Assembly (NCBI GenBank): GCA_964016885.1
Contig: OZ024743.1
Coordinates: 105,958,001-106,022,000 of the forward strand
Direction: 5' to 3'
Source: Eledone cirrhosa
Taxonomy: Eukaryota
Length of the DNA stretch: 64,000 bases
Notes under the pieces: model-generated
What the model was told of the DNA's origin: nothing
What the model saw: the letters and a program-made list of their open reading frames with translations, nothing else
Databases searched by the model: none
Shown: piece by piece, positions 6,101 to 64,000 of the stretch
Position numbering within the stretch: position 1 is the stretch's first letter
Layout of the letters: every line of letters starts with the position of its first letter
Made by a program: the position numbers and the translations under genes

Positions 6101-6660
6101 ATGTGATGGGCAGGGTGATCCACTGGCACCTATGCAATGTAAACAATTTACCACATTCTGAGAAGTGGTATGAGCATAAGCCAGAGGCGGTTATAGAAAA
6201 CGATCAGGTGAAGGTGCTGTGGGATTTTAGGATACAGCCGGACAAGAAACTGGAACACAATAGACCTGACGTGGTGGTTTTGGACAAAGAAAAAAGATCG
6301 TGCCTGATTGTGGATGTGGCCTGCCCATTCGACACGAGAGTGCATGAGAAGGAGAGGGAGAAAATTAACCGATACCAGGACTTAAAGTGGGAGGTAAAAT
6401 GGATTTGGAACTGCCATGAAGTCAAAGTGATCCCGATTGTCATAGGCGCACCAGGGACTATCTCAAAACGTTTCCAGGGATGGTTAAAGAAAATTGGCCC
6501 CTTCACGCTTTTTGGAACGCTTCAAAAGGCATGCTTGCTGGGAACAGCAAGAACCCTCCGATACGTCCTGAATATCTGAGGCTGCAGGTAGTGGCTTGAT
6601 ATTCATTTTAACCAACTTTTCAGTTAACTAATATCAATGACTGAGACTCAAAGAGTAATG
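3190..6660 (+). mobile_element. Decayed R4/Dong-like non-LTR retrotransposon (RT plus C-terminal restriction-like endonuclease)
   Basis: Collinear ORF pieces 3355-3981, 4049-4624, 4888-5106 and 5110-6579 carry WKSPGPDG, NYRPITC, IFQGDSLSP, HLLFMEDLKLF (YxDD degraded), the CCHC motif CRICGEREETVAHIVSEC, RHD and RPD..IVDVAC..KINRY. There are in-frame stops and frameshifts. The 3' end runs into (TAA)n and the 5' boundary is approximate. Confidence 0.9.
5110..6579 (+). pseudogene. Longest open segment of the decayed R4/Dong-like ORF (RT C-half, CCHC finger, RLE)
   Basis: 489-aa ORF collinear with the C-terminal part of the intact 12833-16483 protein. The catalytic motif reads FMED. Confidence 0.85.
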
Positions 6661-9900: not shown

Positions 9901-10340
9901 TCTAAGATCCCGTTCCAGTCGCCCACTAACACTAAAGAGCGGGACGTTCCAAGAAAAGTCTCCAGACGCCGGAAGAAATCAGGCCGCCCTGCTCCTGTCG
10001 GGGCATAGACGGCCACTAACCTGAAAGCTTGCCCGTCTCCGCTGGTCACGTCCAGCACCACCAACTTACCTTCTGGGTCCAGGAAGATGGCCCGTATGGC
10101 AAGATCCAAACCTCTCCGAAAAAGCACAGCAACTCCTCCCCCCGATCCCGGACGGCTGGGAGATGCGTACACATCGTAGCCGCCGAAGATCGGTGCGAAA
10201 GCCTGTGCTTCGGAGATTCTGGTCTCGCTGATGGCCACTACATCTATGTTTAGTGACCTGAGGTCGTTGAGCAGGTGGCCCTGCTTCCATGACGACCCCA
10301 AGCCACGCGCATTTATGCTGCCTATTCTGAGTGAGGTCAT
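6922..10340 (-). CDS. Tx1 ORF2: apurinic-like endonuclease, reverse transcriptase and CCHC finger, split by a frameshift near 8985
   Basis: ORF 8853-10340 has SINARGL, ISET, VYAP, GDWN, YLDR and TDH (APE). ORF 6922-8988 has KSPGFDG, NFRPITLLN, DQSKAFDRV, RQGCPLS, YADD and CPRCAQGDETVLHALVQC. Confidence 0.9.
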
Positions 10341-10374
10341 GTTGAAAAGGAGTGGAAAAGATGGGAAAGACCAC

Positions 10375-21882: not shown

Positions 21883-22044
21883 ACTATTTTGTCCTTCTTC
21901 TCTTCTCTCTTCTCTCCCTCCATAGTCGTTTAAATAAAAGGTTGTTTTTCATTATTTACATATTCATTTGCATATTCACCCATAAGTTTGAAAAATCCCT
22001 AATACATGTCCACTATCCAGAGAATATCCAACTGATAAGGTATA

Positions 22045-22184
22045 ATTTTCCTGGGTATGTCTCTATTTATTATACAAACTTTGTATTTTAACTGAAGAAA
22101 CGTACCAAAGTCTTTTGGTACCCTTGAATCATATATAATAAAATAAATATGGTTTTATAAATGTAATTTCCATTTATTTAATAT

Positions 22185-22190
<6 letters not shown>
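22045..22190 (+). mobile_element. Short hammerhead-bearing repeat module (family A) ending in (TA)n
   Basis: Homologous to 30670-30800 and 37601-37738. It contains CTGAAGA (22092-22098), a stem II hairpin gtaccaaag/ttttggtac, GAAT (mutated GAAA) and catata-TA-ataaaata. Confidence 0.75.
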
Positions 22191-22244
<54 letters not shown>

Positions 22245-23339
22245 TTATATATGAATACGATTTCGCAGTCGTATACGTATTGCGGAAGCTTAATTTTTAT
22301 TGGACATATAATTTGACGTGTTTTCTTATGAGGTTGAGGAAATTATTTTAATTTCATTTCATTATAGACAAATTTCCAGACTATATAACTACGTAAATTG
22401 TAACCAGTGACAAATATTAGAATAAATAATATTCTCATGGAATCTTTTGGCTGTAATTTACCAATCACATTTGATCTGATTTCTCTTTGTTATTCTAGAT
22501 GTTTTTATAATCGGTTTAATTTGACTATGCTAAATGGTCTCCATGTATAAAGAACTCGATAGCATAACATACTCTCATTTTCAAAAATAGAATAGAGATG
22601 CAAATTGAACTACATCATATCAAACGAGTAAATGAGTAGTAAAAACTGAATTGATTGAACAGCAATTTTCGTGTTGATGTCGAGTGTTTATTTCGTGAAT
22701 CCTAACTTGATTTCTTTTTTGTTGAAAATTGGGAAACTGTGTTGGAATACTACACATATCGTACACCGTACTGAGTAATTTAAAACACTTTTTTTCTTAT
22801 CTTTCAGCATCATATTTTATATCCTAAAGCTTCGATTATTTTTTTAAAAACATTTACGTTAGGAACAATATTCTAGAAGACTGTGTTATATGACAATTAC
22901 CCTTTCATATAAATTAGTAATCACGTTACAAGCCAAGAATTAATTTAGAATACATTACATTATAATTATTGACATACGCTGTCTAGGGTACTGCTATATA
23001 TAAAGCAATAACATATGGGCTACTGAAAGGAATATATATAAATCAAATAGGAGATATGATTGGTAGGCAAACCCTGAGTTTAGTATAGAGAAAAATTTAG
23101 TGAATACTTTCAGTTTCCAATTTTACAAAGATTTAAATTATGATGTTTCTAGCCAATGAATCTGAAATGAGGACTTTCAAAGATGTGCTGATATATGGCT
23201 ACATATATGGAATACTTTTAAACTCAAATTATATAAATATTTAACAACAAAATAATCATATATTTGCTCTCATAAAAACGGCATTTATATATATTACACA
23301 CACACACGCACATATGTATATATATATATTCTTTTTTTC

Positions 23340-30667: not shown

Positions 30668-30800
30668 ATTCCTGGGTGTGTCACTATTTATAAAACAAAC
30701 TTCGTATTTCATCTGATGAGTGCGTACCAAAGTATATAATAGATATATAATATAATAAATATGGTTTTATAAATATAGTTTCCATTTATTAATATCATTG
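30668..30800 (+). mobile_element. Family A hammerhead module with the 3' half of stem II and GAAA deleted
   Basis: ctatttataaaacaaacttcgtatttcatCTGATGA...aataaatatggttttataaatatagtttccatttattaatatcattg, then (TA)n. Confidence 0.7.
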
Positions 30801-30938
30801 ATATATATATATACGAGATATATATATATATTTACATATATAATTTAAATTAAATGGTATATGTATTGAAAGAGAGAGAGAGAGAGAGATAGAGAGAGAG
30901 AGGGAGAGAGAGGAGGATATGAAAAGAGAGAAACACAT

Positions 30939-31363: not shown

Positions 31364-32572
31364 TAGGTGCGGACGGTATTTGAGGACACATTATTTTATT
31401 TGACTAATCTTTATTGAACTTCTATTTCAGAAAATACAATGAAAATAACTATGCTTACTAATGAAATGAAATGGCATGTTGTGATTGTTACTTTGATGGC
31501 TAAGCATGGTGATTTAGATATTTCTCATTTTCTGAAAGTTGCAAGATCTTTTGTCTACAAGATACGGTGTGAGTTACAGAAAGAAGATGGAAGCGTATTA
31601 CCTGTATCAAAATGTTAAAAACATTCCAAACACTCTGATTCTCTCAGGACACCTGAATTTATTCAGGAAGTTAAACAAGACATTGATGACAATCCAGTAA
31701 AATCAATGAGGTCAATTGCAAAAAATGTTAGTGTGTCAGAAAAAACAATCAGAAATGTTGTTCATAAAAACATCAGATACAAAACTTACGTGATGAGCAG
31801 AGGTCAATTCATGTAAGAAGAAAAACAAAAACAAAAAAAAAACGTTTAATCAGATCCAAAAGAGTTTTGAACAAATTTAAAAATCCATCAGAAGTTGATG
31901 TGATTTGATTTTTCTCATCTGAGCAAACCTTGCTATGTGCAGAATCTTATGAGGTTCCAAAACGCAACATTTCCTGCAAGTGTCATGGTTTGGGGTGTTG
32001 TTAGCAATGAAGGACACGTGATGCCTCCTCAATTTTATCCACAAGGCCTTAGGGTGAATGCTGCTCCGTATATTGAGGTTGTGGATAAAGTTGGTAAGTC
32101 TTGGATCAACAGTGTGTGCAATGGAAGGCCTTATGTCTTTCAACAAGATTCTACATCATCACACAAGGCTCAATTGACACAAGAATTGATGGCTGACAAT
32201 TTGCAACATCACATCACCTCCAACATTTGGCCTCCTAATTCTCCAGATCTCAATCCACTGGACTACTATGAATGGGGCATCGTTGAGAAACATGTCAATG
32301 AACACCCCCATATCACCAAAGATTCTTTGAAAGCTGCAATAGTTCGAGTCTGTCTGATATGAACACGGAGCACTTAATCCGAACATGTAAACGATTTCGA
32401 CCTCCCGTAGAGTTAGTTATTCATGCTTATGGTGGTTTTATTGAATGAAATTATTAAATTAATAATTCAGCTTTATGTTTATGTTATTTTTATAAGGATA
32501 CAGTCTTTTTCTGTTATATAAGCGTTTTTTTTTCTAACCTTAAATATGTCCTCAAATACCGTCCGCAACCTG
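31364..32572 (+). mobile_element. Tc1/mariner superfamily DNA transposon, DD37D (maT-type), defective
   Basis: ~30-bp TIRs (taggtgcggacggtatttgaggacacatt at 31364-31392 and aatatgtcctcaaataccgtccgcaacctg at 32543-32572) with TA on both sides, enclosing a transposase remnant. Confidence 0.92.
31937..32362 (+). pseudogene. Transposase catalytic-domain remnant
   Basis: VMVWGVVS, FQQD and WPPNSPDLNPLDY, with 37 residues between the second and third Asp. The N-terminal part (~31450-31930) is broken by stops and a deletion. Confidence 0.88.
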
Positions 32573-32860: not shown

Positions 32861-33240
32861 ATAAATTATTAAAAAAATAATGAATAAACAAAGAAACAGT
32901 TCCTTATGTTAAACAAAAAAAGTTCATTATTTTACGATCGTTTCTAGGACATATATGTGTTAGAATTGGTATGCATATTCAAAAGATCTATGTACAAAAT
33001 TATACAAACTATCAGAGGGAATATACATACCTTCACATATATATGCTGTCTTCAGAAATAATATGTATAGGTATGTATATTCCCTCTGATAGTTTGTATA
33101 ATTTTGTACATAGATCTTTTGAATATGCATACCAATTCTAACACATATATGTCCTAGAAACGATCGTAAAATAATGAACTTTTTTTGTTTAATATAAGGA
33201 ACTGTTTCTTTGTTTATTCATTATTTTTTTAATAATTTAT
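32861..33240. repeat. Near-perfect fold-back: 180-bp arms (32861-33040 / 33061-33240) with a 20-bp spacer
   Basis: The arms are reverse complements with about three mismatches seen by eye. Confidence 0.95.
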
Positions 33241-33912: not shown

Positions 33913-34545
33913 ATAATTGTCTCTCCCTTTGGCAACAAGGCTGGCAATTTTGGGGACTGGGAAAGCCGATTAAATCGACTCCAGTGCCTTACTGGAGGTT
34001 TATATTATCGACCCCATAGGGATGAACGGCAAAGCTAACCTCGGCGGTATTTGAACTCAGATCGTAAAAGAGCGTAACCCTATGTCATAAAGCATACTGT
34101 CCGAGGCTCTACCGCTACTGCCAATCTACAGCCCTGCTTCTACTACGAACAATGAAAATGTCTTCCGATTTAGATACAAAGCCAAATATTTTGTGTGACG
34201 GAAAACACTATTATCTTGACCCCTGCGCTTTTTTGATACTTTGTTTTATCGATGCCCTAAGCTATTCTCGGCGGGATATGAAATATAAACGAAAAAGGAC
34301 GTAGCTATAAGCTGTAAAGCATGTTATTTGATGGATTACAGATAGTGCCCTAACAATTGTTTCTACTATTGGCATAAGGCCAGCAATTAACCAGTACATT
34401 ACTGGTACCTTATTTTATTGACCCTGTAAGGATGAAAGGCAAAGTTAACCTCGGCGGGATTTGAACTCAGAATGGCAAGGGCCGTAACTCTATGCGTCAA
34501 AGCATGGCGTCCGACCCTCTACCAATACTGCCAATCCACCGCCAT
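33913..34545 (-). mobile_element. Cluster of three minus-strand SINE copies (33913-34135 long variant, ~34160-34330 degenerate, 34353-34543)
   Basis: Reverse complements of the SINE family at different degrees of divergence. Confidence 0.82.
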
Positions 34546-35037
34546 AATAATAATAACAATATATATATCTGTATGTGCGTCTGCATATGTGAGGAATTTG
34601 TACAGGTCTAAAAAAATGTTATAGGGCAGAATGACTTTAGCGCATAATTATACCCCAAATATATAATACTGGACACGTTAGGTCATTGGTCCCTTTTGAC
34701 ATCCACCCCACACATACATACACTGTCACAAACACATACAACCGTATTATGCACGGACACAATCTCCTATATGTACCAGCACAAACACATATAGTCAGAA
34801 CATCAATTATACGCACTCACAAACTCACACTTAATCACACATGCACACAAATACACTCAAGTACACACATATCTAATTATCTTCTTCCGTGTCTCTATAT
34901 GAAATATGTATTCATTTTCGCTGTCGTTCCCTCATTTATATAAATGGAACTTTCATATATATAATTTTTTTTTTCTTAATGTCTTTATTTCTTTCCCTTT
35001 CTTGAAATCCCCGCTTTCATTATTTCTATATTTAAAA

Positions 35038-35464
35038 GGGCGGCGGATTGGCAGTATCGGTAGAGAGTCGGACGCCATGCGTTCCAACATAGGAACGTCT
35101 CTTTACGGTCTGAGTTCAAATCCCGCCGAGGTTAACTTTGCCTTTCATCCTTACGGGGACGATAACATAAAGTACCAGTAATTTACTGGGTAATTTGCTG
35201 GCCTTGTGCCAAAAGTAGAAACAAGTATTTCTATATTTATAAGGGGGGCGGATTGGCAGTATCGGTAGAGGGTCAGACGCCATGCTTTGCAGTTTAGAGT
35301 TACGGCCCTCTATGATCTGAGTTCAAATCCCGCCGAGGATAACTTAACCTTTCCTTCTTACGGGGTCGATAAAATAAGGTACTAGACACGCACTGGGATC
35401 GATTTCATCGACTTTCCTCACCTTCAAAATTACTGGCCTTGTGCCTGTAAAAGAAACCATTATT
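35038..35464 (+). mobile_element. Two tandem SINE copies (35038-35224 short variant, 35243-35464 long variant)
   Basis: Family sequence. tatttctatattta is duplicated around the first copy. The second copy has an extra ~30-nt segment before ctggccttgtgcc. Confidence 0.88.
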
Positions 35465-36490: not shown

Positions 36491-37484
36491 GAATTCATAA
36501 ATTTCTGGTTGGTTGGTTGGTTCCACGACCAGACGATTGTTCATATATTGTCAAAGTTCTTTCGTCACACATTCTGTGACTTCTTCGGTGATTGGGGATT
36601 ATTTTCTTTGTTTTTGTGCCTCTCCTTTGTTCTGTCCTACGCCATCTTTTTTTGTGTGTTTTGTGTGCTTAGTTTGCGCATGTGTTACATCCGGGTGTCT
36701 GTGTGTGTTTATATTTGTTTATTTATTTGTTTATTTACATGTTACTGGTTGGTATGTTACTGTTTATTTATTTGTTTATTTACATGTTACTGGTTGGTTG
36801 TTTGTTCTATGTGTGTGTGTGTTTTCATGTTGTCCTTAATTGTAAGTTGTGATGTTGCTATTCCATTCATGCTTTCTATTTAATTTTGGTTAAGTCACAT
36901 TTCATCTATATACATTTTTAAGTATCAAGAAAGCAGCCCCCTTAAACTGCTAGAAACAGCAAACATTAAATTTACAAAACAAACAAATAAAGAACGCAAA
37001 TAATTAGACTGAAAACAAGAATCTTCCATTACAAAAATAAAATTAAAAATTGTCTAATTAACTGGGGAAAATACATAAACATTATTTGTTCCCACCCGAG
37101 AGACTAATTAGGTACAATAATTAGCACTAGTCTGGTCTTGTTTGTCGCAAGATTTTTGCCAACGACAAAATATTTTCTTTACCAAGGGAGAATAAAAATA
37201 CATCTAAATAAATCTTCTAAAATAATCTAATAATTTCTATATTTCTAAGATATCTCGAAAAAAATATCAATAAATGTGTCATGGGATTATCTATTTTCTA
37301 TTATTCCTATACACAAACACATGAATACACACACACACAAATATATATATATGCAGAAGTATTTAATTTGTTGGAAGTCTGACAAACATAAATATTTGTA
37401 ACTGATTTAGAGCACTCAACAAGTAACTGGAGTAAATATTCAATGATATTAAATAAATGGAAACTATATTTATAAAACCATATT

Positions 37485-37549
37485 CATTTTATTATATATA
37501 TTTCAAGGGCAACCAAAACACCATTGGTGCGCTTTCATCAGATAAAATA
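37485..37549 (-). ncRNA. Minimal type I hammerhead ribozyme (family A)
   Basis: Minus strand: tattttat-CTGATGA-aagcgcaccaatggtgttttggttgccctt-GAAA-tatata-TA-ataaaatg. Confidence 0.8.
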
Positions 37550-37629
37550 CAAAGTTTGTTTTATAAATAGAGACGTACACATCAAAATCATACCTTATCG
37601 GTAGGTCTCTATTTATAAAACAAACTTTG

Positions 37630-37694
37630 TATTTTATCTGATGAAAGTGCACCAATGGTGTCTTGGTTGCCCTTGAAATATATATAATAAAATA
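37630..37694 (+). ncRNA. Minimal type I hammerhead ribozyme (family A)
   Basis: Stem I tattttat/ataaaata (8 bp), CTGATGA 37638-37644, stem II aagtgcaccaa/ttggttgccctt, GAAA 37675-37678, palindromic TATATA, UA. Predicted cleavage is after 37686. Confidence 0.82.
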
Positions 37695-37733
37695 AATATG
37701 GTTTTATAAATATAGTTTCCATTTATTTAATAT

Positions 37734-37784
<51 letters not shown>

Positions 37785-37811
37785 TTTACATATATATATA
37801 CATATATATAT

Positions 37812-38253
37812 ACGTGTTTTGCAACTGGTCACTTTGTGGCTCAATGAAAAAATTAATAAATTAAATAATCAGAGCTATATATCATAAAACATGTCTATAG
37901 AATCACAAGATAAAATATATACCATTTCCTCTCCCAATTAGCATAATTAACTATATAAAAATGAGGCTTCTATGAAGAAATCTCCGACAAATAACCGAAA
38001 CTAGCCCTTCGCGTCGGCCGCAGCGGAATATTTATCGAATATCTCGACAGCGTAATCGCCCAGATACAGTCAACTAAACAGAATTAGGTGTAAAATAAAC
38101 TAGGAGAAAATAGAATATATTTAAATACCTCTACCATGGTTTCGTCCGTATTTTGAGATTTCCAATAATTATGTAATAATTTTGAATGAATTCTTGGCGC
38201 GATCACTTTGGAAAATTTAGTGTCTAAATAAGAGCGAACTTCCTGATGAATCC
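37812..38253. mobile_element. Family B module: minus-strand copy (37812-38168) followed by a short plus-strand piece (~38180-38253), with a split hammerhead
   Basis: Homologous to 62485-62868 and 63140-63212. ggac-GAAA-ccatgg-TA-gaggta is on the minus strand (38126-38147) and aacttc-CTGATGA-atcc is on the plus strand (38237-38253). Confidence 0.78.
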
Positions 38254-38302
38254 ATAACGCACCAACGTACTCAATACTTAGGGTAGTAGAGTGGGTAATA
38301 GG

Positions 38303-38402
38303 AACGAGTAGGACCCCGACGGCTGAGCTCAAGCTGTTTCGACAGCTAATTCTGGACAGCCGTCGAAACGGCTTGAGCTCAGCCGCTGGGGTCCTACTCG
38401 TT
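38303..38402. repeat. GC-rich hairpin with 45-bp arms and a 10-nt loop
   Basis: aacgagtaggaccccgacggctgagctcaagctgtttcgacagct / agccgtcgaaacggcttgagctcagccgctggggtcctactcgtt. Confidence 0.9.
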
Positions 38403-39399
38403 GCTATATATATATATATATAAGTATCATTGAGAGAAAGGAAACGAAGATATGTATAAATAAACGCACCACACACACAAACACACACATATATGAGAAT
38501 ACGCAACAACGAAAATTATCACGGGGGGACAAAGCAAAAATATAGGTTTCTTATTTAGGCAAAAGGCCAGCAACTTTTCGGTGTGGGAAATTTGATTAGT
38601 TCGACCCAGGTAAATGCTTCAAAATTTAAGATATATACCACCTAATGGTGAACAATAATATTGATCTAAACGAGAAGACATTCACAGGTTTACAAAAATA
38701 CGTTGCTTTACCTGTTCTTCAAATGACGAACCCTTTTGTATTGTGTGTCACACAAAACTCCCTGAAATTTACGCCAAGGACATACGCGCCTGCAGAATAC
38801 TCAACGACTTGCACGTTACCTTCTCGAGCAGGATGTTGTATTGTCCGGACAACCATTGGTTGTCCGGACCGACATATGTCCAACACATGTGTGTGTTGGT
38901 TGCGTGTAAATTTAGAATCACAAAAGAAAAAGCGATAGATGCCTATGGTTATCATATATTCGCTATCAAATTTGTAAAAATAAAAATAAATAGATTCTGT
39001 GCGTGCTGTTAAATATAAGAAATAAGAATTGTGAATAAAGATTTGTAATATGCAATGTAACTATAAAATGGGAAACCAAATGTGTATACCTCAGACGTTT
39101 TTTTAAACAGCTTCTCGCGTAGTGTTCGATATATCATTGAATACTTAATTTCAATATAGAAATTGTAATTAATATTTGTAAAATGTGTAAGGTAAACTAC
39201 CATTGATATTCAAACTATTCCATCTTTTCAGATGTATGATGTCCTATTTTGATATGTTCATGTTAAAAAGAAACGCCTTTTCTGTAGAGCCATATTTGAA
39301 TAGTATATGTGATGGTTAAGACAGAAAATGTTAACAGGATTATTATGTCACAAGGGACCATGTGGTGCAAAGAACTTAGGAAAGTACATATAAGAAATA

Positions 39400-42630: not shown

Positions 42631-43620
42631 CCGGTTAGGATACCCGCTACACTGACAAGACAACCTCATACGCGCCTGTAGTTTCGTCTGCACCAGTGCC
42701 TTTACACCACCCCACTACGCCCGCACTAACCGGCTACTGTATACGTCACCTACCATCCTTCACTCCTTCTCCTCCAGAGGACAATCCTGCGCGACTTCCG
42801 CCGCCTTCATTCACTTCTATGAATCTCCCCATTCCCCCTCCCATTTTCTTCTCTTTTAAACATGCATGTCCCAACAAGAACCTTCTCGTCCACAGTTCCC
42901 GTCCTCCTTCCGACACTTCTCCTGGATCCCTTTCCTGCTCCCGAATCCACTGTTACATATGCAGCTTCATTACCCACACCGCCACCTTCATCTGACCTAA
43001 CAGCCATCTCTGTTATATGCTATTTACGTTGGTCTGACTGACTGTCAACTAGCCGTCGTTGACGAACTACAAGACATCCGGGTCAGTAAGTCGTCCTCGG
43101 AGACACGAGATTTCTGCTCTGCCGGTCATTCCACGCATCTTCTGACTGTGATCGGACTCGCATCCTGCAGAGGTCCCCTAACAAGTACCGCCTGAGTTAA
43201 CGGAGGCTTGTATTGTTTTTCATAATCCCTCTACACCCCGTGGAATTAATACATCTCTTCCTATGTTCTGCCCTTCACATTCCATCCAACACCGTCCCTC
43301 ATCCACACTTGCATTCTGAAATACTCACAGACGCTTAGATACCGTACACTTCAACCATTACTCTCACACACTACATAATAAAAATACACGCAAACACACT
43401 CTGATAGACACATACATATCACCACATATAAGCGTTTTATTTTGTTGCTTTGACGCCTATAACTGACTTTCTTTCATTTCAAAATTAGCTTTTCCCCCTA
43501 CGTTACATGTCATATTAATGAAATAGTTTCTCTAAAATGTTGTTTTCTATTTTTAAAATGTATCCCCTGACGAAGGTCTATAGTGAGATACGGTGAATTC
43601 TTCTTTTCTCCCTTTCATCT
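42630..43620 (+). pseudogene. Penelope-like element 3' remnant (GIY-YIG region plus decayed pLTR)
   Basis: LPLHHPTT, NLLVHSS and PGSLSCSRIHCYICSFI parallel the 48600-49260 region. A decayed hammerhead ccc-CTGACGA-aggtctatagtga-GATA-cgg lies at 43564-43595. Confidence 0.65.
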
Positions 43621-43639: not shown

Positions 43640-45960
43640 ATGAATAGCATTAAGAAAAAGATAGGGAAGGCTAACTCATGGTATGAGAGCCAAATATACC
43701 AGAGTGTCAAGTTCGATCATACTACCCGTAGAGGGGAACTAGTGTATCGATTTGAAAGATCCATAGTATTAAATAGTAGAAAAAGCAGGAGTACCATAAA
43801 GTCCCAGGTTATTAAGACATACCCTTTAATAAAAACGCCGTGTACCTATAGAAACTGTATAGTCTCTAAGATAAGCCCACAGATAAACTGACAAACTTGA
43901 AATGTAGTCTGTAGGATAATATATATAGATGGACAATACAGAGACGAAACAATGGCATACATAGGAGAGAGATTGAAAGAACACATTTGAGAACAGAGGA
44001 GGACGTTTTTTCAGTGTTATACCAACACGTCATACTAAACTATAACACGAGGGCTCTATAGATGACATCGAATACAGATCCTAACAACTTATAGAACTGA
44101 TGCAACACTCAGACGAGTAATAGAAATAATAGAAGATAGACATGAACAGAAAATACAAGTGGAATAGTAACAGCCCGTAACTTAATGACTGACGACAGAA
44201 TAGAGAATAAACGACACAAACAATACAAACTCCCACACAAAAAAACACACATTGTTCAGCAAGAAGACCAACCACGTGAGATAAACGTAAATTGCAAATA
44301 TGTTTTGAAAGTACATAAATATTAATTAATGAAAGAGACAATCCCAAAACCAATTGTGGTACTATACTCACACCAAATAATCTAAAACTACCATCTATTA
44401 TAGCAGTCCAAATTTGCGAAACACCCCGTCTAAGTAATTTCTTAGACCTCTTATTGAAATGTCTTCCGAAATACATTCGTATTTTCATACGAGATGATTT
44501 AGATTTTCTCAACTATCTCCCGGAAAATGTAAACCAGAACACTTTTATGGTCTCATAAGATGTTGTGAACTTATACAGTAACATTCCTCACATTTACCGA
44601 TTCAAAGCCATCAAATACTAACTAGACTCATTTCCTTGTGAACTATGAGACAGCTTCTATAAGAGTTTCATCGTAGATGGGCTGGAATTCATTAAAAAAA
44701 AAATGATTTCCTGTTCGATGATATTGCTTCCCGACTGAAATCAGGAACAGCCATCCGGACGGAAGTTGCATCATATTATGCCAACATAGTCATGGGATAC
44801 CAGGAATTACGAATTTACAAAAAACAAAGCCAAAAAAACAGAAGACATTCATAGGAATAATTTAGGCGAGTACATAAAAGAAAACTGGACGAGGAATTTG
44901 GACGACTGCTTTATATTATGGAGGGAGAATCTTGGCCAACTACAGACATTGCACGCCATCATCAATGGTATAAACCTATGTAGCAATACAAAACTTCCAT
45001 TTTTAAGATATCCTAATAACAGAAAGAAACATAACATTAGAAACTGATATATATTTGAAACCTATTGACTCTCGACAATACATACGTTTTACATTTCATG
45101 ATCCATCACACACCCGTACCAATATCTGTTTTAACTTAGCCAAGCGAATCTGTACAATAGATTCAAACACAATAACCAGAGACTACACATTAGAGAAGAT
45201 AAAACAAATGCTTTTCAAGAGACAATATTCTCAGAATTTAATCAACAATAATATCTCAAAAGCATTCTAATCAATATCCAAACACACTGAGAATCAAAAC
45301 CAAAGCAAGGAAAATGGTCATACCATACGTCTCAACTTTTAATCCAAAGAATAGAGAGATATACACACACAATTAAACCTATCTATCTTACTATAGTACA
45401 AGAAAATAAAAAAAAACAACTTACCAAAACACCCAATCATAAAAAGTAAACGACAACCAAAATCACTCTAAAAGATACTAACGAATACAAAATTGGAAAC
45501 TGTTACTAAAGCAACTGAAGTAAAAAGGTGCAATCGACCTCACTGTGGAGTATGCTGCTATGTGTTAGAAGGCAACGAATTTAATTTCAAAGAATGTCTT
45601 CTCTTTATAATTATAAATGACATCGCTTGCATCTCGGGAAATTTAATATACATTATAACGTGTAAAGGTTGCCACGAATACTATATTGGACAAACAGGCA
45701 CCATTAAGCAAACATATGGAGAACCTATTCTGCTACATTTCGATCTCTTCCCATTCTACCAATGTAGACAACATTTCACTCAAGATAAAGATATTAGTAT
45801 ATAAAGAGTTTTTATAAGTAAATTCAACTAAAACGCAATTACTTAGGCACATAAAAACATTTTGAAACAAACGAAAAAAAACACGAAAATAGAAAAAAAA
45901 ATAAAGCCTGAATTCTGCCCTTTGAAATTCACATATTGTTCTCGATATAAGTGACGAAGA
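43640..45960 (+). pseudogene. Heavily decayed Penelope-like (Neptune-type) element
   Basis: DVVNLYSNIPH, SGTAIRT..ASYYANIVMG, LDDCFILW, KPIDSRQYI..HDPSH, CNRPHCGVC and NLIYIITCKGCHEYYIGQTG. Confidence 0.8.
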
Positions 45961-46539: not shown

Positions 46540-49500
46540 CTTCCTTCAACCTTTCCCCCTATATACATCCAATCCTCCCTGCATCTCTCCAACCTCATCT
46601 TCACCAAAACACGATACAACAGTCACATCACATTTTTAAGTCGCTGTCTCCACCAGCACCCCATTCCCCGCTGTTTTCGTCTCAAGTTTCACCCCACCTC
46701 TTACTCTGCTCCCACCACTGAGTCCATCCTTACCCGCTCCTCTCGCCAGCTCATGCGGGCGACTATTCGTTCAACTCGCGCCCAAATCCGTTCTCTCAAC
46801 CGAGATCTCCCTAAGGCCTACCTCCATTTCTCTTCCACTTGCCAACCTTTCCTCGTCCAAACCCTTATCCAATTTATCCTTTACCTCAATCGCCTCCTTT
46901 TCAATTTCCTCACTTCCTTAAAAAACCGTAAACTCGACTCTCTCCGCTCCCCGACTACCGTCACAAACCATACTCATTCACTTTCAACCCTAACTCCTCT
47001 ATCCCGTCTCCTACCACTGTATCTGCACACGCTTTGGCCAACCACCTGACCCCTCCGCTTCCGCCACTTTCACTCCCTCACGTCCTTGCACTGTAGTTAC
47101 CATACCCCAGGGCTTACGACTCTACAAAACTGAGCCCTCCTTCCTCACCCATGGTTTGCGTTTTATACCAACCACATCTACCTGCGACGAGTTCCGCTCA
47201 CGTGCCGAGATTGATGGGTTCTTCCGTCGTTTAAAGCTGAAAGCTTTTTTTCACGACACGCCACCATCAGCACAGACGGATGACTTCACTCATCTCAGTC
47301 GCCGGCAATCACACTGGACGCCGAGCTCTGGCCAGTTCAGTACCCTCGACTCCTCTGTCGATACCTGCCGGCGTACTGTGAATCGGTTCCGTTTCCACCA
47401 GCAGTCTCGTCGCTCTAACATCACGCGAACTGAGATCTCCGCTCTTCGCAACCTTCGGTGTCGCGATGAAATTGTCATGAAACCCTCTGAAAAGGGTGGC
47501 GCTGTGGTGGTTTGAAGCGCTGACCTCTATATGGCTGAGGCTCTCCGCCAGCTTCACAATAACCTTTTTTACCGCCCTTTATCCTCCGACCCCACTCCTG
47601 GCTACAAACAACTCGTGTCCTCCACCATCCACGACCTCATCTCCTCTTAGCCCCCCCCCCCCCCCACCAACCTTATTGTACGCACTCCTAGCACACCCAC
47701 CATCTACTTCCTCTCTAAAATACACAAACAAAATAATCCTGGCCGTTTCTGCGTGCAACTGCCCCACCAAGATAATTTCTGAATATTTAGACACCATCCT
47801 CGCCCCGTTGGTCAGCAATCTCGCCTCCCACATCCACGATACAAATCATGCCCTTACACTTTTCAACTCTTTCTCCTTCCCTCCTGGTCCCTCCCACCTT
47901 CTCTTTAATGGACATCGCTTATCTCTATACCGTCATCCCTCATGATGACGGCCTCCACGCACTCCAGCATTTTTTAGATTTACGCCCTACCCCTTACCCC
48001 AGCACTACCACTCTTCTCTGTCTGGCTGAGCTTGTTCTCACCCTTAATAGATATCTTTTTGGGGTGAATTTTACCAGTAGGTCTCTGGGGTAGCGATGGG
48101 AACCAGAATGGTTCCAAACTATACCAACTTGCTTGTTGGCTACGTCGAAGCCCAGATCTTCTCCCAGTACGCTGGACCGACTCCTGAGCTATACGGTCGT
48201 TATATCGACGACTCTATCGGCGCCACCTCTCTATCACGAGAAGAGCTCGACTGTTTTCTTTCTTTCCAACCTGCTCTGAAATTCACCGCCTTGGTCTCCG
48301 ATTATTCTGTCGCTTTTCTAGATATCTCTGAATCTATTAATCACTCTCACCATACCGTCTCTACTTCCATCTACATTAAACCAACAGACTCCCAATCTTA
48401 TCTCGACTTCACCTCCTCCCATCCAACCCACACCAAATTCTCCATAGACTATTCCCAATTCCTCCGTCTTCGTCGACTCTGTAGCCAGACTGACGATTTC
48501 GAAACCTATTCCCTTCGCATGGCTTCCTGCTTCATCCAGCGTGTATATCCCCCCCCCCGACCTTGATCCAAGCTGCTCTCACTCACGCCCGTGAAACTGA
48601 CCACGCCGCATCCCTCTCACCTCACCCCGCCCTCCCAATGCTCGTGTTCCTTTTCCTCTCACCTACCACCCCATCACCCTATCACTCTCGCGACATATCC
48701 TCCATTCCTTCCGTCCGCTCTTCTGACCCCGTCACTTCTCACTTTTTCCAGCCCCACCCATTACTGATTTTAAGCGCGCCCGAATCCTCCGCGACATCCT
48801 GGTTCGCAGTTCTTTTTTGTCCTCTCCCACGACTCCACCCGGCCCTTATCCTTGTTCCCGTTGCCGCTGCAACACTTGTCCCTTTATTGCCACCCTCACC
48901 ACTCTTACGTATCTTTCCGGGTCTTTCCGTATCCACCATTCATTCACCTGCACATTCACCCACGTTGTCTATGCTCTCCGGTGTTCTCTTTGCGGGTCTT
49001 TATATATCGGACAAACGGGACACCGTATGGCGGACCGGTTTGCCGAACATTTGAGGGACATACTACTCGGTTTGGATACTCCTGCCGCCCGTCATTTCTG
49101 TTCCCCTGGTGATTCTTCTCTACATGTTTCAGTCCTGGGTGTCCTTTTACATCATGGATCACAGGCCTCGAGCACTAGGACTGTACAAAGTCTGATTCAC
49201 CGTCATGGGTCCAATTCCCCTCTTGGACACAACTCACCTCCCCGTCCATTATCACACCCCTAGATTCCTATCGTGTTCTTTGCTCATAGCTTCGTACTTA
49301 CATGCACACACACTCTTTTACTCACATATACACACATATAACTTCTTAACTTCGTACGGGCCCTATAATAACACACACACGCACACACACACACAGACAC
49401 ACACACATACGCACACACACACACACACCCATGCTTACGCACGTGCTCAAGTATAGCTCTTTTTACAATACGGTTTTTTTTCCATTTCAGGTAGACGCGC

Positions 49501-49790: not shown

Positions 49791-50512
49791 ATATATATAT
49801 ATATACAATATCCGTCCCTATGTAGGGTGTGTGTATATGTGTACTCCGTGTTTTGGTTGACGTAGTCTGCGAATATATGTGTATTAACATGTAGGAATGT
49901 GTGTGCGTGCGTTATATACGTTTATATAATTATATGTATACACGCACACACAGACACTTATAAATATATATTTTCGTTATATATATTTTTATATGTATTT
50001 GGTGTATACGTTCGTATGTGTGCGGGTACTGGTGCTGCGTAGTATCTGTATGTGCGTGCGTGTTTTTTGTGTACGTGCTCGTTTTAGCATACTCATAGCG
50101 AGTGTTTTCGCGTATGCATGCGTATGTACGTATATGGATGCGTGCATGTATATATTTAATTTCAATTACCTCTGTAATTTATTTACTTTATTCTTAACTC
50201 TGAATCCGAGAACCATTCGGTTTCCCCAATAGAATTTTAGTCTACGATTTCAGTTATACCATATACGTGGTTTTGTCTTTGCGTGTTCTCACCGATCCAC
50301 ATAAAGACGTATTAACTTTGTTTTTTCTATTCATTGCCAGTGAACCTGTCCACGAACCGCCTAACAAAATATTAGTCTACGACTACATTTATACCATAAA
50401 CGTGGTTTTGTCTTTGCGTGTAATTGTTTCACCTATTACCCACTCTACTACCCTAGGTATTGAGTACTCTGGTGCGCTACGGCCTATCTGGTTCCTTACC
50501 ACAACTCCTTCG

Positions 50513-56709: not shown

Positions 56710-57208
56710 GGTGTGTGTGTGTGTGTGCGTGTGCGTGTGTGTGTGTGTGCGTGTGTGTGTGTGTATTAATATATTATAAGAGTGTATGTTCATTTCTTTC
56801 GTGACTAAATGTATTTTTATTTCATTTGGTGGTAGATAACAATTCTGTTTTCAAGGCTATATTTTTATGCAGTCACACTATTCATCTTCCACATACCAGC
56901 TGCTTTGCATCTACCTAATCTACTATTTATTAGGTTCCTCAGTTCATATTTTATACTGCTCGTGGCTATTTGTACCCACAAATCAAATATAGTTTCTCGT
57001 AAGAGGAATAGAGCACAAGCATTGACATACTCATTCAGTGGAGAAACGACTACAGTAATAAAATCTATACCATTTTACATCTTTCACCCAATGCAGAGAA
57101 TTTCAACCGTGCTTGTATAGATGGCTTTGTCATGTTTAACTATCAGTACCCACTCACACAGTTCTTGAGACAGCTGTGACACGACCAAAGATTAAACCCG
57201 GAGAAAAT

Positions 57209-57391
57209 AATTGTTTCCACTTTTGGCACAAGGCCAGCAAATTACCCAGTGCATTACTGGTACTTTATTTTATCGACCCGTAAAGATGAAAGGCAAAGTT
57301 AACCTCGGTGGGATCTGAACTCAGATTGGAAAGGGCCGTAACTCTATGCATCAAAGCATGGCCTCCTACCCTCTACCCATACTGCCAATCC
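57209..57391 (-). mobile_element. tRNA-derived SINE
   Basis: Reverse complement of the family sequence, with agaaaataat flanking both ends. Confidence 0.88.
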
Positions 57392-57485
57392 AGATACGAA
57401 GAAAATAATATTTATCAGATATGATCTAAACATGTATTACTTCATATACGCCACTACTAACTATGTAATATTATTGTCTTTACAA

Positions 57486-58062
57486 GGGCGGTGGATTGGC
57501 AGTATCGGTAGAGGGTCGGACGCCATGCTTTCCAGCATAGTTACGTCCCTTTACGATCTTAGTTCAAATCCCGCCGATGTTGACTTTGCCTTTCATCCTT
57601 ACGGGGTCGATAAAATAAAGTACCATTAATGAACTGGTTAATTGCTGGCCTTGTGCCTAAAGTAGAAACAATTATAAAGGGCGGTGGATTGGCAGTATCG
57701 GTAGAGGTCGGACGCCATGCTTTCTAGCATAGTTACGTCCCTTTACGATCTGAGTTCAAATCCCGCCGAGGTTGACTTTGCCTTTCATCCTTACGGGGTC
57801 GATAAAATAAAGTACCAGTAATGCACTGGGTAATTGCTGGCCTTGTGCCTAAAATAGAAACAATTATTGTCTTTATAATTCGCTGGATTGGCAGTATCGG
57901 TAGAGGACGGACCCTTGCTTTGCAGCATAGAGTTACGGCAATTTATGATCTAGTTCAAATCCCGCCGAGGTTAACTTTGCCTTACATCCTTACGGGGTCG
58001 ATTAGATACAGTACCAGTTATGCACTGGGATAATTGCTGGCCTTGTGCCAAAAGTAGAAACA
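57486..58062 (+). mobile_element. Three tandem SINE copies (57486-57672, 57679-57862, 57881-58062)
   Basis: Three head-to-tail family copies. attattgtcttta(c/t)aa recurs at 57470, 57863 and 58063. Confidence 0.92.
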
Positions 58063-58694
58063 ATTATTGTCTTTATAATTACACACTCTCTATGCTGTAA
58101 GTTTACATCCGAACGTAAGTTCACTTTTCAAGATCCCCCCTTCTCTCTCTCTCCCTCTCTCTTTATATATTTTTATATATATGTATATTTCTTCTGGAAC
58201 TAATCGTGCCTGTGTTCAAGATCGGAGAGGAAATGTTCTGCGCCAGTTTTAATATGCCCAAGACACGCCGTATATCAATGCCATGCTCTTACCACTTCCT
58301 CAAGATTTATGTCTCAATACATACATACATTCAACACAAACGTAAAAGACGCACAGATGCACATCGTTCTGTTTATCTTGATTATATATCATTCATTGAC
58401 TAAGTTCCCTATTTAACAATCTTGGCATTCATCATTTTCTCTCTCTCATGATGAACTTAAGTTTAAGGTAGGCGCTAAAACACTGGTGGATGGTTTTACG
58501 TACCGAACAGACCTAAGTTTACATATTAGTATATTTCACCATTTACCTAGCTTACGATGTATAAAACAATCCTGATATAGTTTAACTTTTATGGTATAAC
58601 TCATCTATTACACCTCTGATGTTAAGCATTTCGTCAAAATATGTTTTGTTTCTCTTTAAGATAATCAACTAAAAAATATGTGACTTTGCTTTAA

Positions 58695-59099: not shown

Positions 59100-62000
59100 G
59101 TTTACTTATCAAATAATTTAAACCAAATAAACTGCCAATAATCTAAATCCTAAACCATACACATTGCCAGCCAAAAATGGTTGATTCTATACAAATCAAA
59201 TAAACACTTTATAGATTCTGCCTAGTTGCTTTCGACTATCTAGAGTCGTAGTTGTATAGTATGTTGAGCCTCTGAAACTTGTTACTGTCGTACAATATAG
59301 GAGTAAACATCATCATACATAAATATGTACCTAAGTTAGTTTATGTTGCTTATGACACGGCGCCAAAATATATTCTCCTACTTTTGTCATAAAGTTGACA
59401 ACTTCACATTATCAAATGTTTTATTTACAAGCCATGGGATATTTGTGAATTTTCTCATATGCTAGAGATGTTTACAATATGGAACTCTTCGTTTCAATTT
59501 CATACATAAAACATACTTGAAAGGTTCTTATGCGTTCTATTATATATCTTGTCATTTAAAAATATGATGTATAGCAAAATAATATTCTTGTTCCTTCATA
59601 AATGGAGTTTACTGGGAATTCTGAGAAATAGATGCGATATTTATATTGTTCTAAATTCTAGAGAATATGTCATTCGCTACATATTCTAGGATGATCATAT
59701 CTCATGAGTAGTGTTGATACGAGTTATTATGTCTGTTTTCCCTTATTATTCAGCATTTTTAATATGTTTGAATCCAAACAAATAAGTGTATCCACAAATG
59801 CTGTAATGCTGCTTACAATACTGAACGTAACGTCTTATGTAATATATAAATATATACTATAAATCCTATAAAACCTTACAAGTACAAAAGTATAGAAGAT
59901 GATATCCCAAAAGTTTCAATCTATCTACAAAATATCTTTTACGTCAAAATTAAAAGAAACATATTTGTTATAGAACCTTCAAGCGGAATCATGTTTCAAT
60001 TCTATTACGACTCATTTTAGGCGAACAAACAGCGAATTATTCTGGTGGTATTTATTTTCTTAACATCGTGTTCCACATAAAAATATACTTGAACAGTATA
60101 AAACGGCCCTAGTCCTGTGAATCCTTTACTCAAATACTGCAAAATTTACTAAATAACTGCCCACTAATGAAGCCTCTGTAAATATTTCATTTGAGAAACA
60201 TAATATTAGATATTTTCTGCTAAATCATTACAGGGTGATTATAGTTAATGCAAGTATCCGCTATATTAGCACAGTGAATTGTTTGAAATACTATAATTGT
60301 GAGCATGAAATTGCATGCTAAGTAGTTCAATTTTAACGTAAAGAGATTCGAGAAATATAGAACTGATAGTTTCATTTTAAACTATATTTTCTTGGAAAAG
60401 TTGAATAAACCGAAATAAATGCGGAGTTGTTTTGGTAAAGTTCAAAGATCCGACTCACCACCCACTGCATTTCATACATTGATTAATACATTCTTATATC
60501 GAGTTATCTCCTTTGCTCCTCTTCACGAGAATTGTTATTAAAGCTGATGTATTTCCTGTTGATTACAAGAAAAAATTTCAGTTGATTAAAGGTTAATTAC
60601 GTTATAATGATTGACATATTCTAGGCCACGCGTAAATATGTCCATGATACTGAAGGGATCTCTAAAACGATTTCTAAATCCCGGAGTAATGGTTCAATTT
60701 CCTAATAGATCTTTCTGTCGAAGATATATCATAACAGAAAAATCTCAACGCACGCTTTCTGCCGCTCTGAGTATGGTTAGAGCGGTGACTTAAGCCACCT
60801 CAAAAATTGGTTTATTTTGTATTGAGAATTACGGATTTTGGCTATAAAAGGCCTAGTGACAGATTAATAAACACTAATGGCTTATCCGATTGTTTTGTAT
60901 TTATAAAATTTGGTAGGCAGCTAATTTGGAGATTAGTTAGAACGTCGGATAGATTGATGTGCAGTATTTGTTCCGAGTTTCTGCATTTTGGGATCAAATA
61001 GCCGAGGAAAACTTTACATTTCAATATGTTGATAAAAAGTACCAGTTCAGTACTATGAACTATACTTCTATAATCTTTTTCTAATTTCTTCTCATTTTCT
61101 CTTTCTCTCTTTCTCTGGAAGAAATCGGCTGTGTTCGGAACTAGAGAGCTAATGCTCACTGCCTAGATTAAAATGCCAAGGCAGGTAACATATCTCGACG
61201 AAGATCCTACGATACCACCAGGAGTTAGCAAATGAATAGTAAACACGGTTTCCAAAATAGAATCATATTTAAAATATCAACGATACACAAACGAATGTTG
61301 TAATCAGTGTAATAAATATTCCTTTGTCCCTTAAATATTTAATATTTAGTTGATAGTTTTCGTTTAGAGGAAACACTAAAAATATTGATTTTGATTTGAT
61401 TTATTAAGGAAGAATGATTAATAATTTGGAAATCAATGACTGTTGAAATAATCGCCACATGCGCTTGACAATGAACTATAAAACACTGCACTAAATGGCA
61501 TTAGTATGTACGGTACTTCATCTCACACGATTCTCTTAAAAATATTATATCGATTTTTTTTTCTTAAGCAATGTACATATATTTTAATCGATTTAAATTG
61601 TCCTCGATTCAAATGATCTATAAAACTTTAAAACAATTTTTGGTAAAGCCCCAAAACAACATCGAATTTCATGTGGTGATAGTAATTCAGCATAATTTCT
61701 GCTCTACATATTCAATGTAAAACCTATACTCGAGAATTAACCGAACTGCAAAAGCTTAATCCATTATCGAACCTGTTTCAACATTCCGAATTTCCATCAA
61801 ATCTGTATAATGTTATTGCATTTAAATCGACAGACACTTGAATGTTTTGTTTATAGATTTGTTACAATGGATTAATATAAGGGGTATATTATAAAGAGTG
61901 ATCTAAGTAGCTTAAGGTTGTGAAGAAAAGAAAATACGCTACCCATCAATTATAACTATGACACAAGAAGAGATCAGTTTCCACTCTAACATTCTTTACT

Positions 62001-62367
62001 AGCGGACATAATTTACCAATTTTAGGGAAAACGAATTGTAACGATGTCTCAAATATGCAACAGTTATTCACTGCAATTTCGATGTGGATGTATCATGTAT
62101 TATTTGCAAATCTGGGTGCCCCAAACACAGAAAATAATTGTTATAACTTTCAACCATTAAATGAAAAGGTAAACAAATTGGACACATTACTCTAACAGAC
62201 GGAACATGAGGGGCACAGGTGCTGATGCTCCCCTAATCGTTTTGGTGAAATCTCTTCAATGAAATGTATGTAATTTGTTATGCCATACGCACAATGTGGC
62301 AGATGTCTCTCGGTTGATACTGATGACTGGTTATTTGATTCTTAGACAAGCAAGTACAATTTATCCG

Positions 62368-62441
<74 letters not shown>

Positions 62442-62447
<6 letters not shown>

Positions 62448-63547
62448 TAAAGGTTAACATATACATAAAGTTATAGATATATATATATGTTGCAACTGGT
62501 CACTTTTAAGCTCTATGAAGAATTAATAAATTAAAAAATCAGAGCAATATATCATAAATCATGTCTTTAGAATCATCAGATAAAATATATACTATTTCTT
62601 CTTCTAATTAGCATAATTAACCATGTAAAATTAGATCAAGCTATAAGAAGAAAGGCTCTTATGGAGAAATCTCCGACAAATAACCGAACGTAGCCTCTTC
62701 GCGGTGGCGCCAATCGAGTATTTATCCAACATTTCGACAGCATGTAGAAACTGACTGAATATATCATCAACCATACACAATTAGGTGTAAAATTAAACTT
62801 AGAAGAAATGCGTACATACCGTAATCATATCTCTACCATGATTTCATCCGTATTTTTAGACATCTAAATTTTTAGACATCAAAAGACATGATTTATGATA
62901 TATTGCTGTGATTTTTTAATTTATTAATTCATCATAGAGCTTAAAAGTGACCAGTTGCAACATATATATATCTATAACGTTATGTATATGTTAACCTTTA
63001 TATTTAGTAATCTCCCGAAAGGTTGAGATTAAATTTGGCGATATTTGGCTGCGCTTTTTAGCAGCAAGCCTACCCGCCGTAAGCAACCAATCACATTCTT
63101 TCTGGCTTGACCACAGCCACATAGCGATTCTTAGCCATTTTTGAATCTATTTTTGGCGGAATCGGGTTGAAAAACTAGATGTCTGATTTTGAGTTTGTCT
63201 CCTGATGAATCCTAATTCAGGACATTCCTATTATTTGGATGTCTAAAAATACGGATGAAACCACGGTAGAGATATGATTACGGTATGTACGCATTTCTTC
63301 TAAGTTTAATTTTACACCTAATTGTGTATGGTTGATGATATATTCAGTCAGTTTCTACATGCTGTCGAAATGTTGGATAAATACTCGATTGGGGCCACCG
63401 CGAAGAGGCTACGTTCGGTTATTTGTCGGAGATTTCTCCATAAGAGCCTTTCTTCTTATAGCTTGATCTAATTTTATATGGTTAATTATGCTAATTAGAA
63501 GAAGAAATAGTATATATTTTATCTGATGATTCTAAATACATGATTTA

Positions 63548-63555
<8 letters not shown>
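62442..63555. mobile_element. Family B composite inserted in (TA)n: nested inverted duplications around an intact hammerhead
   Basis: 62442-62568 is inverted at 62883-63006, and 62548-62868 is inverted at 63234-63555. (TA)n lies on both outer flanks. Confidence 0.88.
63196..63274 (+). ncRNA. Type I hammerhead ribozyme (family B) with extended stem II
   Basis: Stem I tgtctc/gagata, CTGATGA 63202-63208, stem II atcc/ggat with inner gacat(t)cc/ggatgtc, GAAA 63257-63260, stem III ccacgg, GUA triplet. Predicted cleavage is after 63268. Confidence 0.85.
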
Positions 63556-63634
<79 letters not shown>

Positions 63635-63678
63635 AAGTTAAATAAAAGTCAAATGATTAAAATTTAGCTTCGTTTATT

Positions 63679-63733
63679 ACTGCTATATATATTTCAGTGA
63701 CAGCCATCTTTGGCTGTGACCTCTTCAGGCAGT
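63679..63733 (-). ncRNA. Minimal type I hammerhead ribozyme (family C)
   Basis: Minus strand: actgc-CTGAAGA-ggtcacagcca-aaga-tggctgtcact-GAAA-tatata-TA-gcagt. Stem I is 5 bp, 10 of 11 stem II positions pair, and stem III is palindromic. It is followed by aataaa and (TA)n. Confidence 0.88.
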
Positions 63734-64000
63734 TTGAATTAGTATGGTATAGACAAGTAAATATGTTGTTTAGGTGTATGATATTGTCAATACTCTGATA
63801 TGCCCAGTTCCTTGTTGGGTTGTTAATTCACTGGGGAACTGGAGTCATATGAATTCAAACAAACGAATTTTAGTGTCACAGGTCCCCTTCTCCTCTCATT
63901 GGTCAGTTATTAGTGTTGTCATTGTTGGAGTTAGCTTACAAATTGATAAAATGGTAGAAGGGACAAGGTGTTGAAGGAACAAAATATCAAAAAATGTGTC

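Follow-up and report, generated by a model that had tools for sequence, protein, structure and literature searches.

A probable non-coding PLE-type insertion with a long-stem-II hammerhead motif in a (TA)n tract of Eledone cirrhosa

Positions 62442–63555 of the window raise the question of how two pairs of inverted arms, a hammerhead ribozyme motif and two flanking (TA)n tracts came to form one composite. The window is a 64,000-nt stretch of Eledone cirrhosa DNA (assembly GCA_964016885.1, contig OZ024743.1, positions 105,958,001–106,022,000, forward strand), and all positions are counted from its first base. The first-pass annotation had described a doubly inverted composite, built around an intact ribozyme by multiple template jumps on ribozyme-processed RNA. 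The feature is real and its kind is ordinary: it is probably a young, non-coding insertion of the Penelope-like element (PLE) type with a weakened hammerhead. The composite is best read as the outcome of retrotransposition that involved priming or template switches, and with high probability the element is a non-coding PLE-family insertion, whether as a short non-autonomous derivative or as the 3' end left by 5' truncation of an autonomous one.

The order reported at first, (TA)n, A and B, A', a spacer of about 230 bp, B' and (TA)n, is borne out; both tracts and all arms are located, and the gap between A' and B' measures 226 bp (63007–63232). Arms A (62442–62571) and A' (62879–63006) match in 124 of 130 columns, arms B (62547–62869) and B' (63233–63555) in 317 of 323. 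A and B have 25 nt in common, and an older family member (37773–38169) carries them unbroken; they therefore form a single inverted copy and not a double inversion. The inverted copy contains a hammerhead 3' half, B, A and then a degenerate TA-rich tail; upstream of this 3' half the 5' core is absent. Outside the junction, A' differs from the inverted copy by three substitutions and one 2-nt indel. The short duplication described at the B/A' junction is present, appears in TRF with period 16 and 2.1 copies, and has AGACAT in common with the start of A'. The main copy on the ribozyme strand, 63007–63555, follows A' and stops once 25 nt of A have been repeated, which makes the sense part (62882–63555) a partial tandem with a period of 652 nt. 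With the ribozyme strand taken as sense, the element's 3' end lies outermost on either side; the right end of B' stops about 103 nt short of the 3' end in the other copies. No TSD is readable. A search for tandem direct copies of the unit had been advised; within the window there is no array of 652-nt period, and one complete motif.

Table 1. Coordinates of the insertion, of the older copy of the same family (family B) and of neighbouring elements in the window.
Feature	Position	Strand	Description
Left (TA)n tract	62370–62443	.	Target tract; abuts the inverted copy's 3' end
Inverted 5'-truncated copy	62442–62869	-	Starts in the stem II apical loop (equivalent of 63233)
Hammerhead 3' half in inverted copy	62828–62869	-	Stem III variant ATCATGGT; cleavage site after 62834
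Junction duplication	62868–62880	+	13 nt, templated; 62852–62864 again, at the head-to-head junction
A', pseudo-LTR-like: short, direct, 5'-truncated repeat of the 3' end	62882–63006	+	
Spacer, non-coding family sequence 5' of the ribozyme	63007–63195	+	
Type I hammerhead	63196–63274	+	6-bp stem I, complete core, 48-nt stem II, GUA
B', body 3' of the stem II loop	63233–63555	+	Ends 25 nt into A at GATATAT
Right (TA)n tract	63550–63629	.	Common, tail to tail, to another, minus-strand hammerhead element
Older copy, same family	37773–38256	.	Inverted arm 38169–37773, filler of about 10 nt, sense arm 38180–38256
Head-to-head palindrome	32861–33240		177/180 identical; complete type I hammerhead in minus arm
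Palindrome	37433–37746		140/146 identical; each arm has a complete hammerhead (plus, 37638; minus, 37541)
Other hammerhead element	63630–63740	-	Core 63728–63684, 26-nt stem II
Decayed RT + GIY-YIG ORF	46552–49242		Several frames; then minimal hammerhead core (49665) and TA tract, to 49790

The insertion is non-coding. The spacer was tried as coding sequence and rejected: six-frame translation gives short open stretches, and tblastn nothing. A query set of 27 PLE-type proteins (those of at least 650 residues among 95 homologues) reached a best tblastn E of 0.24 against 61501–64000, so the element has no RT + GIY-YIG ORF, and no protein-coding sequence linked to the family was found in this interval. 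For lack of that ORF the insertion is not filed as an autonomous PLE. A second CUGAUGA occurs inside B (63511–63529 and 62573–62591); the 8 bases preceding it are those before the core of the 37.6-kb family, and the older family-B copy differs in sequence at this position. A second complete hammerhead at these cores (63523/62579) was considered and rejected; there is no matching 3' half, and neither core scan detects one.

The hammerhead at 63196–63274 has the full core and GUA triplet first attributed to it. Stem I has 6 bp (63196–63201 with 63269–63274), the core consists of CUGAUGA (63202–63208) and GAAA (63257–63260), and cleavage is predicted after 63268, the last base of the triplet (63266–63268). 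The required order of CUGANGA, GAA, A15.1-U16.1 and an NUH triplet is present. Stem III (63260–63267) is near-palindromic, with 2 bp closed by 4 nt. Four loose cores are found in the window and two in 30 shuffled windows; the strict filter passes this motif as the only one of the four, and none in 30 shuffled windows. A relaxed hammerhead scan returns five in the window; 100 shuffles average 0.39 and never exceed 3. Rfam gives no hammerhead match at gathering score in the whole window, the other hammerhead motifs included, and three weak matches, none of them a hammerhead, in 62300–63700 at E up to 10.

The stem II region (63209–63256, 48 nt) has a 4-bp base, an interrupted middle, an 8-bp bulged apical helix and an 8-nt loop (63229–63236). 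Its length and internal loops are thus as first described, but the adjective unusual needs tempering: 32 of 1000 shuffles fold as well (-11.3 kcal/mol), and a stem II of 104 nt lies elsewhere in the window, at 33 kb. The hammerhead is slightly unusual only in this stem, and the length is modest. The 5' strand of stem II is seen in one copy only. A short hairpin at 63210–63222 was tried as the true stem II and rejected, with a probability of at most 0.02 in four of five contexts and 0.07 in the whole composite.

The ribozyme had also been called intact, which is correct for the core and does not extend to the rest. The palindrome of the sense copy is broken by a private T>C at 63264, and pair 10.1-11.1 (63209/63256) is A-U in place of the conserved G10.1-C11.1, a pair at which natural hammerheads do depart (PMC3088659). 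Pair probabilities in a 96-nt fold are 0.76–0.91 for stem I and 0.83–0.88 for the stem II base; that of stem I is at most 0.04 once 201–674 nt of context is folded. Folding of the 96-mer is unremarkable against shuffles (z -0.21, 75 of 200 as good), and the hammerhead-constrained fold lies 2.6 kcal/mol above the minimum. In the fold of a transcript across the whole insertion, the hammerhead 3' half is buried in a 320-bp duplex. Each young arm departs through its own mutation from the family palindrome, ACCATGGT, and the dimer helix has -11.2 kcal/mol with the palindrome of the older copy, -3.9 with the sense arm and -6.0 with the inverted arm. The ribozyme appears to be a PLE-type motif suited to dimer cleavage, of which the 63196–63274 copy is probably weak or silent.

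Family B is represented by two loci, both within the 64-kb window. The older copy has the inverted-plus-sense layout of 62.4–63.6 kb but a different junction. Its inverted arm (37773–38169) matches the young inverted copy (62442–62869) in 324 of 425 columns (76% identical) and holds the perfect palindrome ACCATGGT at 38133–38140, around which the young stem III varies, as had been noted. Its sense arm ends just after the CUGAUGA core (38243), the hammerhead 5' half thus lying on the plus strand and the 3' half on the minus strand. In the alignment, 5 bp of stem I still pair through one two-sided and two one-sided changes. The 3' third of the spacer matches 38180–38242 with a score of 37, attained in 0 of 2000 shuffles; for the match without the core, 2 of 2000 shuffles reach the score. 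A deeper reach of the older inverted arm into stem II was tested and rejected, the best local score of 12 being equalled by 1404 of 5000 shuffles; a loose MAFFT alignment nevertheless sets this extension and stem II together. Only a few bases of stem II are left on the older sense arm; beyond them, within 38257–38410, come an unrelated repeat (present also at 50432–50482) and a G+C-rich palindrome, 44/49 identical, ending in TA.

The young arms outside the junction differ at 9 of 448 positions (2.0%; JC 0.020) and by a 2-nt indel. With the older copy as outgroup, three changes fall to the inverted arm and four to the sense arm, and two are unpolarised. Separate ages for A and B were considered and find no support (3/125 against 6/323 differences, Fisher p 0.71). 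The event, first described as recent from its highly similar arms, appears young relative to the 76%-identical copy and, with the differences counted, not brand new. Derived changes on both arms fit drift after insertion and argue against an assembly echo. An assembly artefact, by a fold-back read or a misjoin between TA tracts, is suggested by the long microsatellites at both flanks and by the trouble that PLE structures of this type give assemblies (PMC8557442). It is nevertheless extremely improbable, given the arm differences, the 226 bp of the sense part missing from the inverted copy, and a window without N.

A DNA-level event is very unlikely, whether a foldback or MITE-like transposon or a replication-repair inverted duplication of one prior copy at fragile (TA)n. 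Long inverted arms, TA flanks and templated junction insertions, all of them present here, also arise in DNA repair, but the left end is the end of A and the right end lies 25 nt into A. The termini therefore differ in sequence and are not terminal inverted repeats, as a MITE or foldback transposon has. Read on the ribozyme strand, the element faces outward with its 3' end on either side, and the same geometry is seen at a second, independent locus (76% identical) and in two hammerhead families unrelated to it. The distance of about 103 nt between the two 3' ends could reflect the optional tail of PLEs, and loss of sequence between TA-like tracts after insertion would give the same picture.

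The template is indicated by where the arms start, as placed by eye. All three family-B arms that span the cleavage site keep 5' sequence (262, 36 and 38 nt), and all four arms of two other families keep 83–137 nt upstream of it; 0 of 7 start at a cleavage site, which makes a cleaved linear RNA template unlikely. Serial template jumps on an RNA already cut by the ribozyme, the route first proposed, would fit the junction duplication, the three segments and the full core of the motif, but are very unlikely in the light of this count. In the PLE of Anolis, moreover, ribozyme mutants insert normally, no reads end at the cleavage site, and the main substrate is described as unprocessed RNA (PMC11167929). 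An uncleaved transcript or a re-ligated circle fits as template. Template jumps are plausible, but the multiple jumps first proposed need not be invoked, since a terminally redundant transcript copied once could give the sense part.

Under the preferred reading, a PLE RT-GIY-YIG protein would cut the (TA)n tract, and each target strand would prime cDNA on uncleaved family RNA. One cDNA, the future inverted copy, would reach some 430 nt and halt within the stem II loop. The other would copy about 550 nt and then run into a second 3' end, giving A'; this end would be reached by a template jump, or because the transcript is terminally redundant. The two cDNA ends would be joined through the AGACAT microhomology and a 13-nt templated slip. 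About 1% drift per arm would follow, including the change that breaks the stem III palindrome. The 103-nt offset at the right end may mean that RT also started at GATATAT, or that sequence was deleted afterwards. For an Anolis PLE protein, Frangieh 2024 (PMC11167929) reports cutting and extension of both strands of AT-rich target DNA, with RT starting at two internal RNA sites. An alternative route to head-to-head junctions is self-priming on an antisense template (Arkhipova 2013, PMC3846280). A simple fold-back at the stem II loop is rejected, because the bases past the junction repeat the antisense strand and not the sense strand. The 3' ends of 7 of 9 arms lie within 7 nt of a TA tract of at least 10 nt, while 4.6% of the window lies within 15 nt of such a tract; the count is not a clean test, since the ends are partly set where similarity runs into TA. 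Against the PLE reading stand the DNA dissimilarity of the element to the 3' end of the PLE at 46.5–49.8 kb, the missing linked coding sequence, the ~103-nt 3'-end difference, the unreadable TSD, the number of loci (two only) and the failure of the Rfam hammerhead models to match.

A re-ligated circle as template leads to the non-LTR retrozyme, in which the 652-nt unit (A', spacer, hammerhead, B') would be the repeating monomer in an RNA that is tandem or circular, with the sense part as a 1.03-unit rolling-circle copy. This is rather unlikely, and since mobilisation would still need a PLE protein it overlaps the preferred explanation. The sense part is a circular permutation with 22–25 nt of terminal redundancy, the copies cross the cleavage site as on a ligated circle, and retrozyme monomers are described as 51–972 bp long and related to pLTRs (bioRxiv 10.64898/2026.07.22.740005). 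The locus nevertheless has one complete hammerhead, where the definition in the sources asks for at least two tandem units (bioRxiv 10.64898/2026.07.22.740005, PMC7229834, PMC7761336); its 652 nt exceed the 150–450 bp given as usual for animal retrozymes (PMC7229834); the A-to-spacer junction (63006/63007) is seen once, the older copy not reaching that far; in both inverted copies the A end lies next to (TA)n, the position expected of a fixed linear 3' end; and stem I is absent in 549- and 674-nt folds.

The window is repeat-rich and AT-rich, with 67 tandem-repeat rows, many of them (TA)n. It holds three hammerhead families other than family B, and the same insertion style recurs in two of them, in the head-to-head palindromes 32861–33240 and 37433–37746. 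The hammerhead at 33 kb has its core at 33055, a predicted cut after 32933, an 8-bp stem I and a palindromic stem III, ACGATCGT; its stem II region has 104 nt and -32 kcal/mol, with the first base pair mismatched, and the plus arm of the palindrome starts inside stem II. This element is a better long-stem-II candidate than 63196–63274. The hammerheads at 37.5 kb have a 30-nt stem II and a stem III of TA repeats; their palindrome has one TA tract in common with the older family-B copy, and decayed relatives occur at 22028–22259 and 30669–30843. The minus-strand element at 63630–63740 enters with its 3' end the same TA tract as family B, tail to tail, and no further copy of it was found in the window.

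A past source of PLE protein is present in the decayed ORF at 46552–49242. Its RT fragment finds 95 homologues; in tblastn with the 27 longer ones (E down to 9e-171) the ORF aligns along full-length RT + GIY-YIG proteins, the Pfam domains being those of three homologues, and a CxxC linker suggests the Neptune/Nematis type. Pfam on five fragments of this ORF gives no family, a PDB sequence search nothing significant, and the nuclease fragment, used as query for homologues, none out of 785 candidates. Since family B has no DNA similarity to the 3' end of this PLE, the ORF attests past PLE activity in the genome and does not identify the mover of family B. A second, more decayed PLE ORF lies at about 44364–45747, with weak traces near 42858–43159.

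Other repeats of the window include a 190-bp repeat in more than 15 copies, with partial tandems and inverted neighbours of PLE-like geometry at 57205–58078 and 33981–35442; it has no hammerhead core and no tRNA gene (ARAGORN, 0 genes), and may resemble octopus SINEs. The uninterrupted 1216-aa ORF at 12833–16483, with an RT domain (Pfam E 2.6e-29), is apparently a young LINE. It has an older relative at 3355–6579; another LINE type occupies 6922–11970 on the minus strand. A DDE transposase fragment is present at 31904–32362 (Pfam DDE_3, E 2.4e-07).

Both family-B inverted copies start in the stem II apical loop (equivalents of 63230 and 63233), with different junction sequences; the second arm at 33 kb starts inside stem II and those at 37.5 kb do not. 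With three cases, noticed after the fact, stem II breakpoints are a lead only. It is conceivable, though doubtful, that the PLE-mobilised elements of this genome carry a very-long-stem-II class of hammerheads (48 nt; 104 nt at 33055–32933) missed by short-helix descriptors and Rfam, in which the hairpin is the RT stall or switch point and so fixes where the inverted copy begins. Taken furthest, this reading would make the 652-nt unit a circular RNA that cleaves only as a dimer. The literature searched includes no paper devoted to long-stem-II PLE hammerheads or to stem II breakpoints; supplements may list such variants. Naiad has eight cases with hammerhead core halves 35–50 nt apart (Craig 2021, PMC8557442), so long core spacing has been noticed before. 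Should breakpoints cluster in long stem II hairpins genome-wide, they would offer a testable cause of the unexplained inverted pseudo-LTR; PLE hammerheads might then have a non-catalytic role, and such ribozymes would be undercounted.

As found, the locus is one more PLE-type insertion among several within 64 kb, and it matters little. Its use is as a small natural record of copying from uncleaved (or re-ligated) RNA with both target strands able to prime, in agreement with the in vitro work described for the Anolis element (PMC11167929). As read from the sequence, its layout is already known: an inverted copy, a direct pseudo-LTR and a body in a TA microsatellite are the published PLE architecture. 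Craig 2021 (PMC8557442) describes PLE insertions as partial tandems that often have a 5'-truncated copy in inverse orientation next to their 5' end and may carry a 3' tail, and the partial-tandem and inverted-copy layout is also reported by Goubert 2022 (PMC8969392). An inverted pLTR that overlaps the direct one by 15 bp, and microhomology junctions, are described by Arkhipova 2013 (PMC3846280), and (TA)n targeting by PLEs hides TSDs (PMC8557442).

The insertion resembles EN+ PLEs (Penelope/Poseidon, Neptune, Nematis, Hydra) in its partial tandem with an inverted 5'-truncated copy (PMC8557442, PMC3846280, PMC8969392), in a head-to-head junction with a short overlap or duplication, in an apparent 3' extension at one end only, in a microsatellite target without readable TSD, and in a hammerhead within the repeated 3' part. 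Unlike them it has no ORF, and its 3' ends are offset by about 103 nt, whereas a tail of 30–40 nt is described (PMC8557442). pLTRs hold type I hammerheads with a small palindromic helix III, including opposite-strand pairs 100–700 bp apart (Cervera 2014, PMC4209133), and the activity described for PLE hammerheads is weak and dimer-dependent (PMC4209133, PMC6765202). The family-B hammerhead shares with these sources' type I motifs the topology, the complete core, a short palindromic stem III apparently suited to dimers and a helix II longer than the canonical 4 bp. It differs in a 48-nt stem II with internal loops against the 6–8 bp described there, in the A-U at 10.1-11.1 where G-C is conserved, and in the broken palindrome of the 63196–63274 copy.

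Like animal non-LTR retrozymes as described (PMC7229834; bioRxiv 10.64898/2026.07.22.740005), the insertion is non-coding and low in GC, with a type I hammerhead and a permuted unit of 652 nt; like them, it is probably PLE-mobilised. Unlike them, it has an inverted copy and no two tandem complete ribozymes. In Poseidon of Anolis carolinensis (PMC11167929) the ORF starts inside the ribozyme, whereas no ORF follows the ribozyme of family B; common to both are an AT-rich target, two 3' ends, priming from both strands and copies that cross the cleavage site, as deduced from sequence at the present locus. The insertion has the features of PLE insertions: a pLTR with an inverted 5'-truncated copy, a (TA)n target and, within the repeated 3' part, a hammerhead whose stem III is of the palindromic kind.
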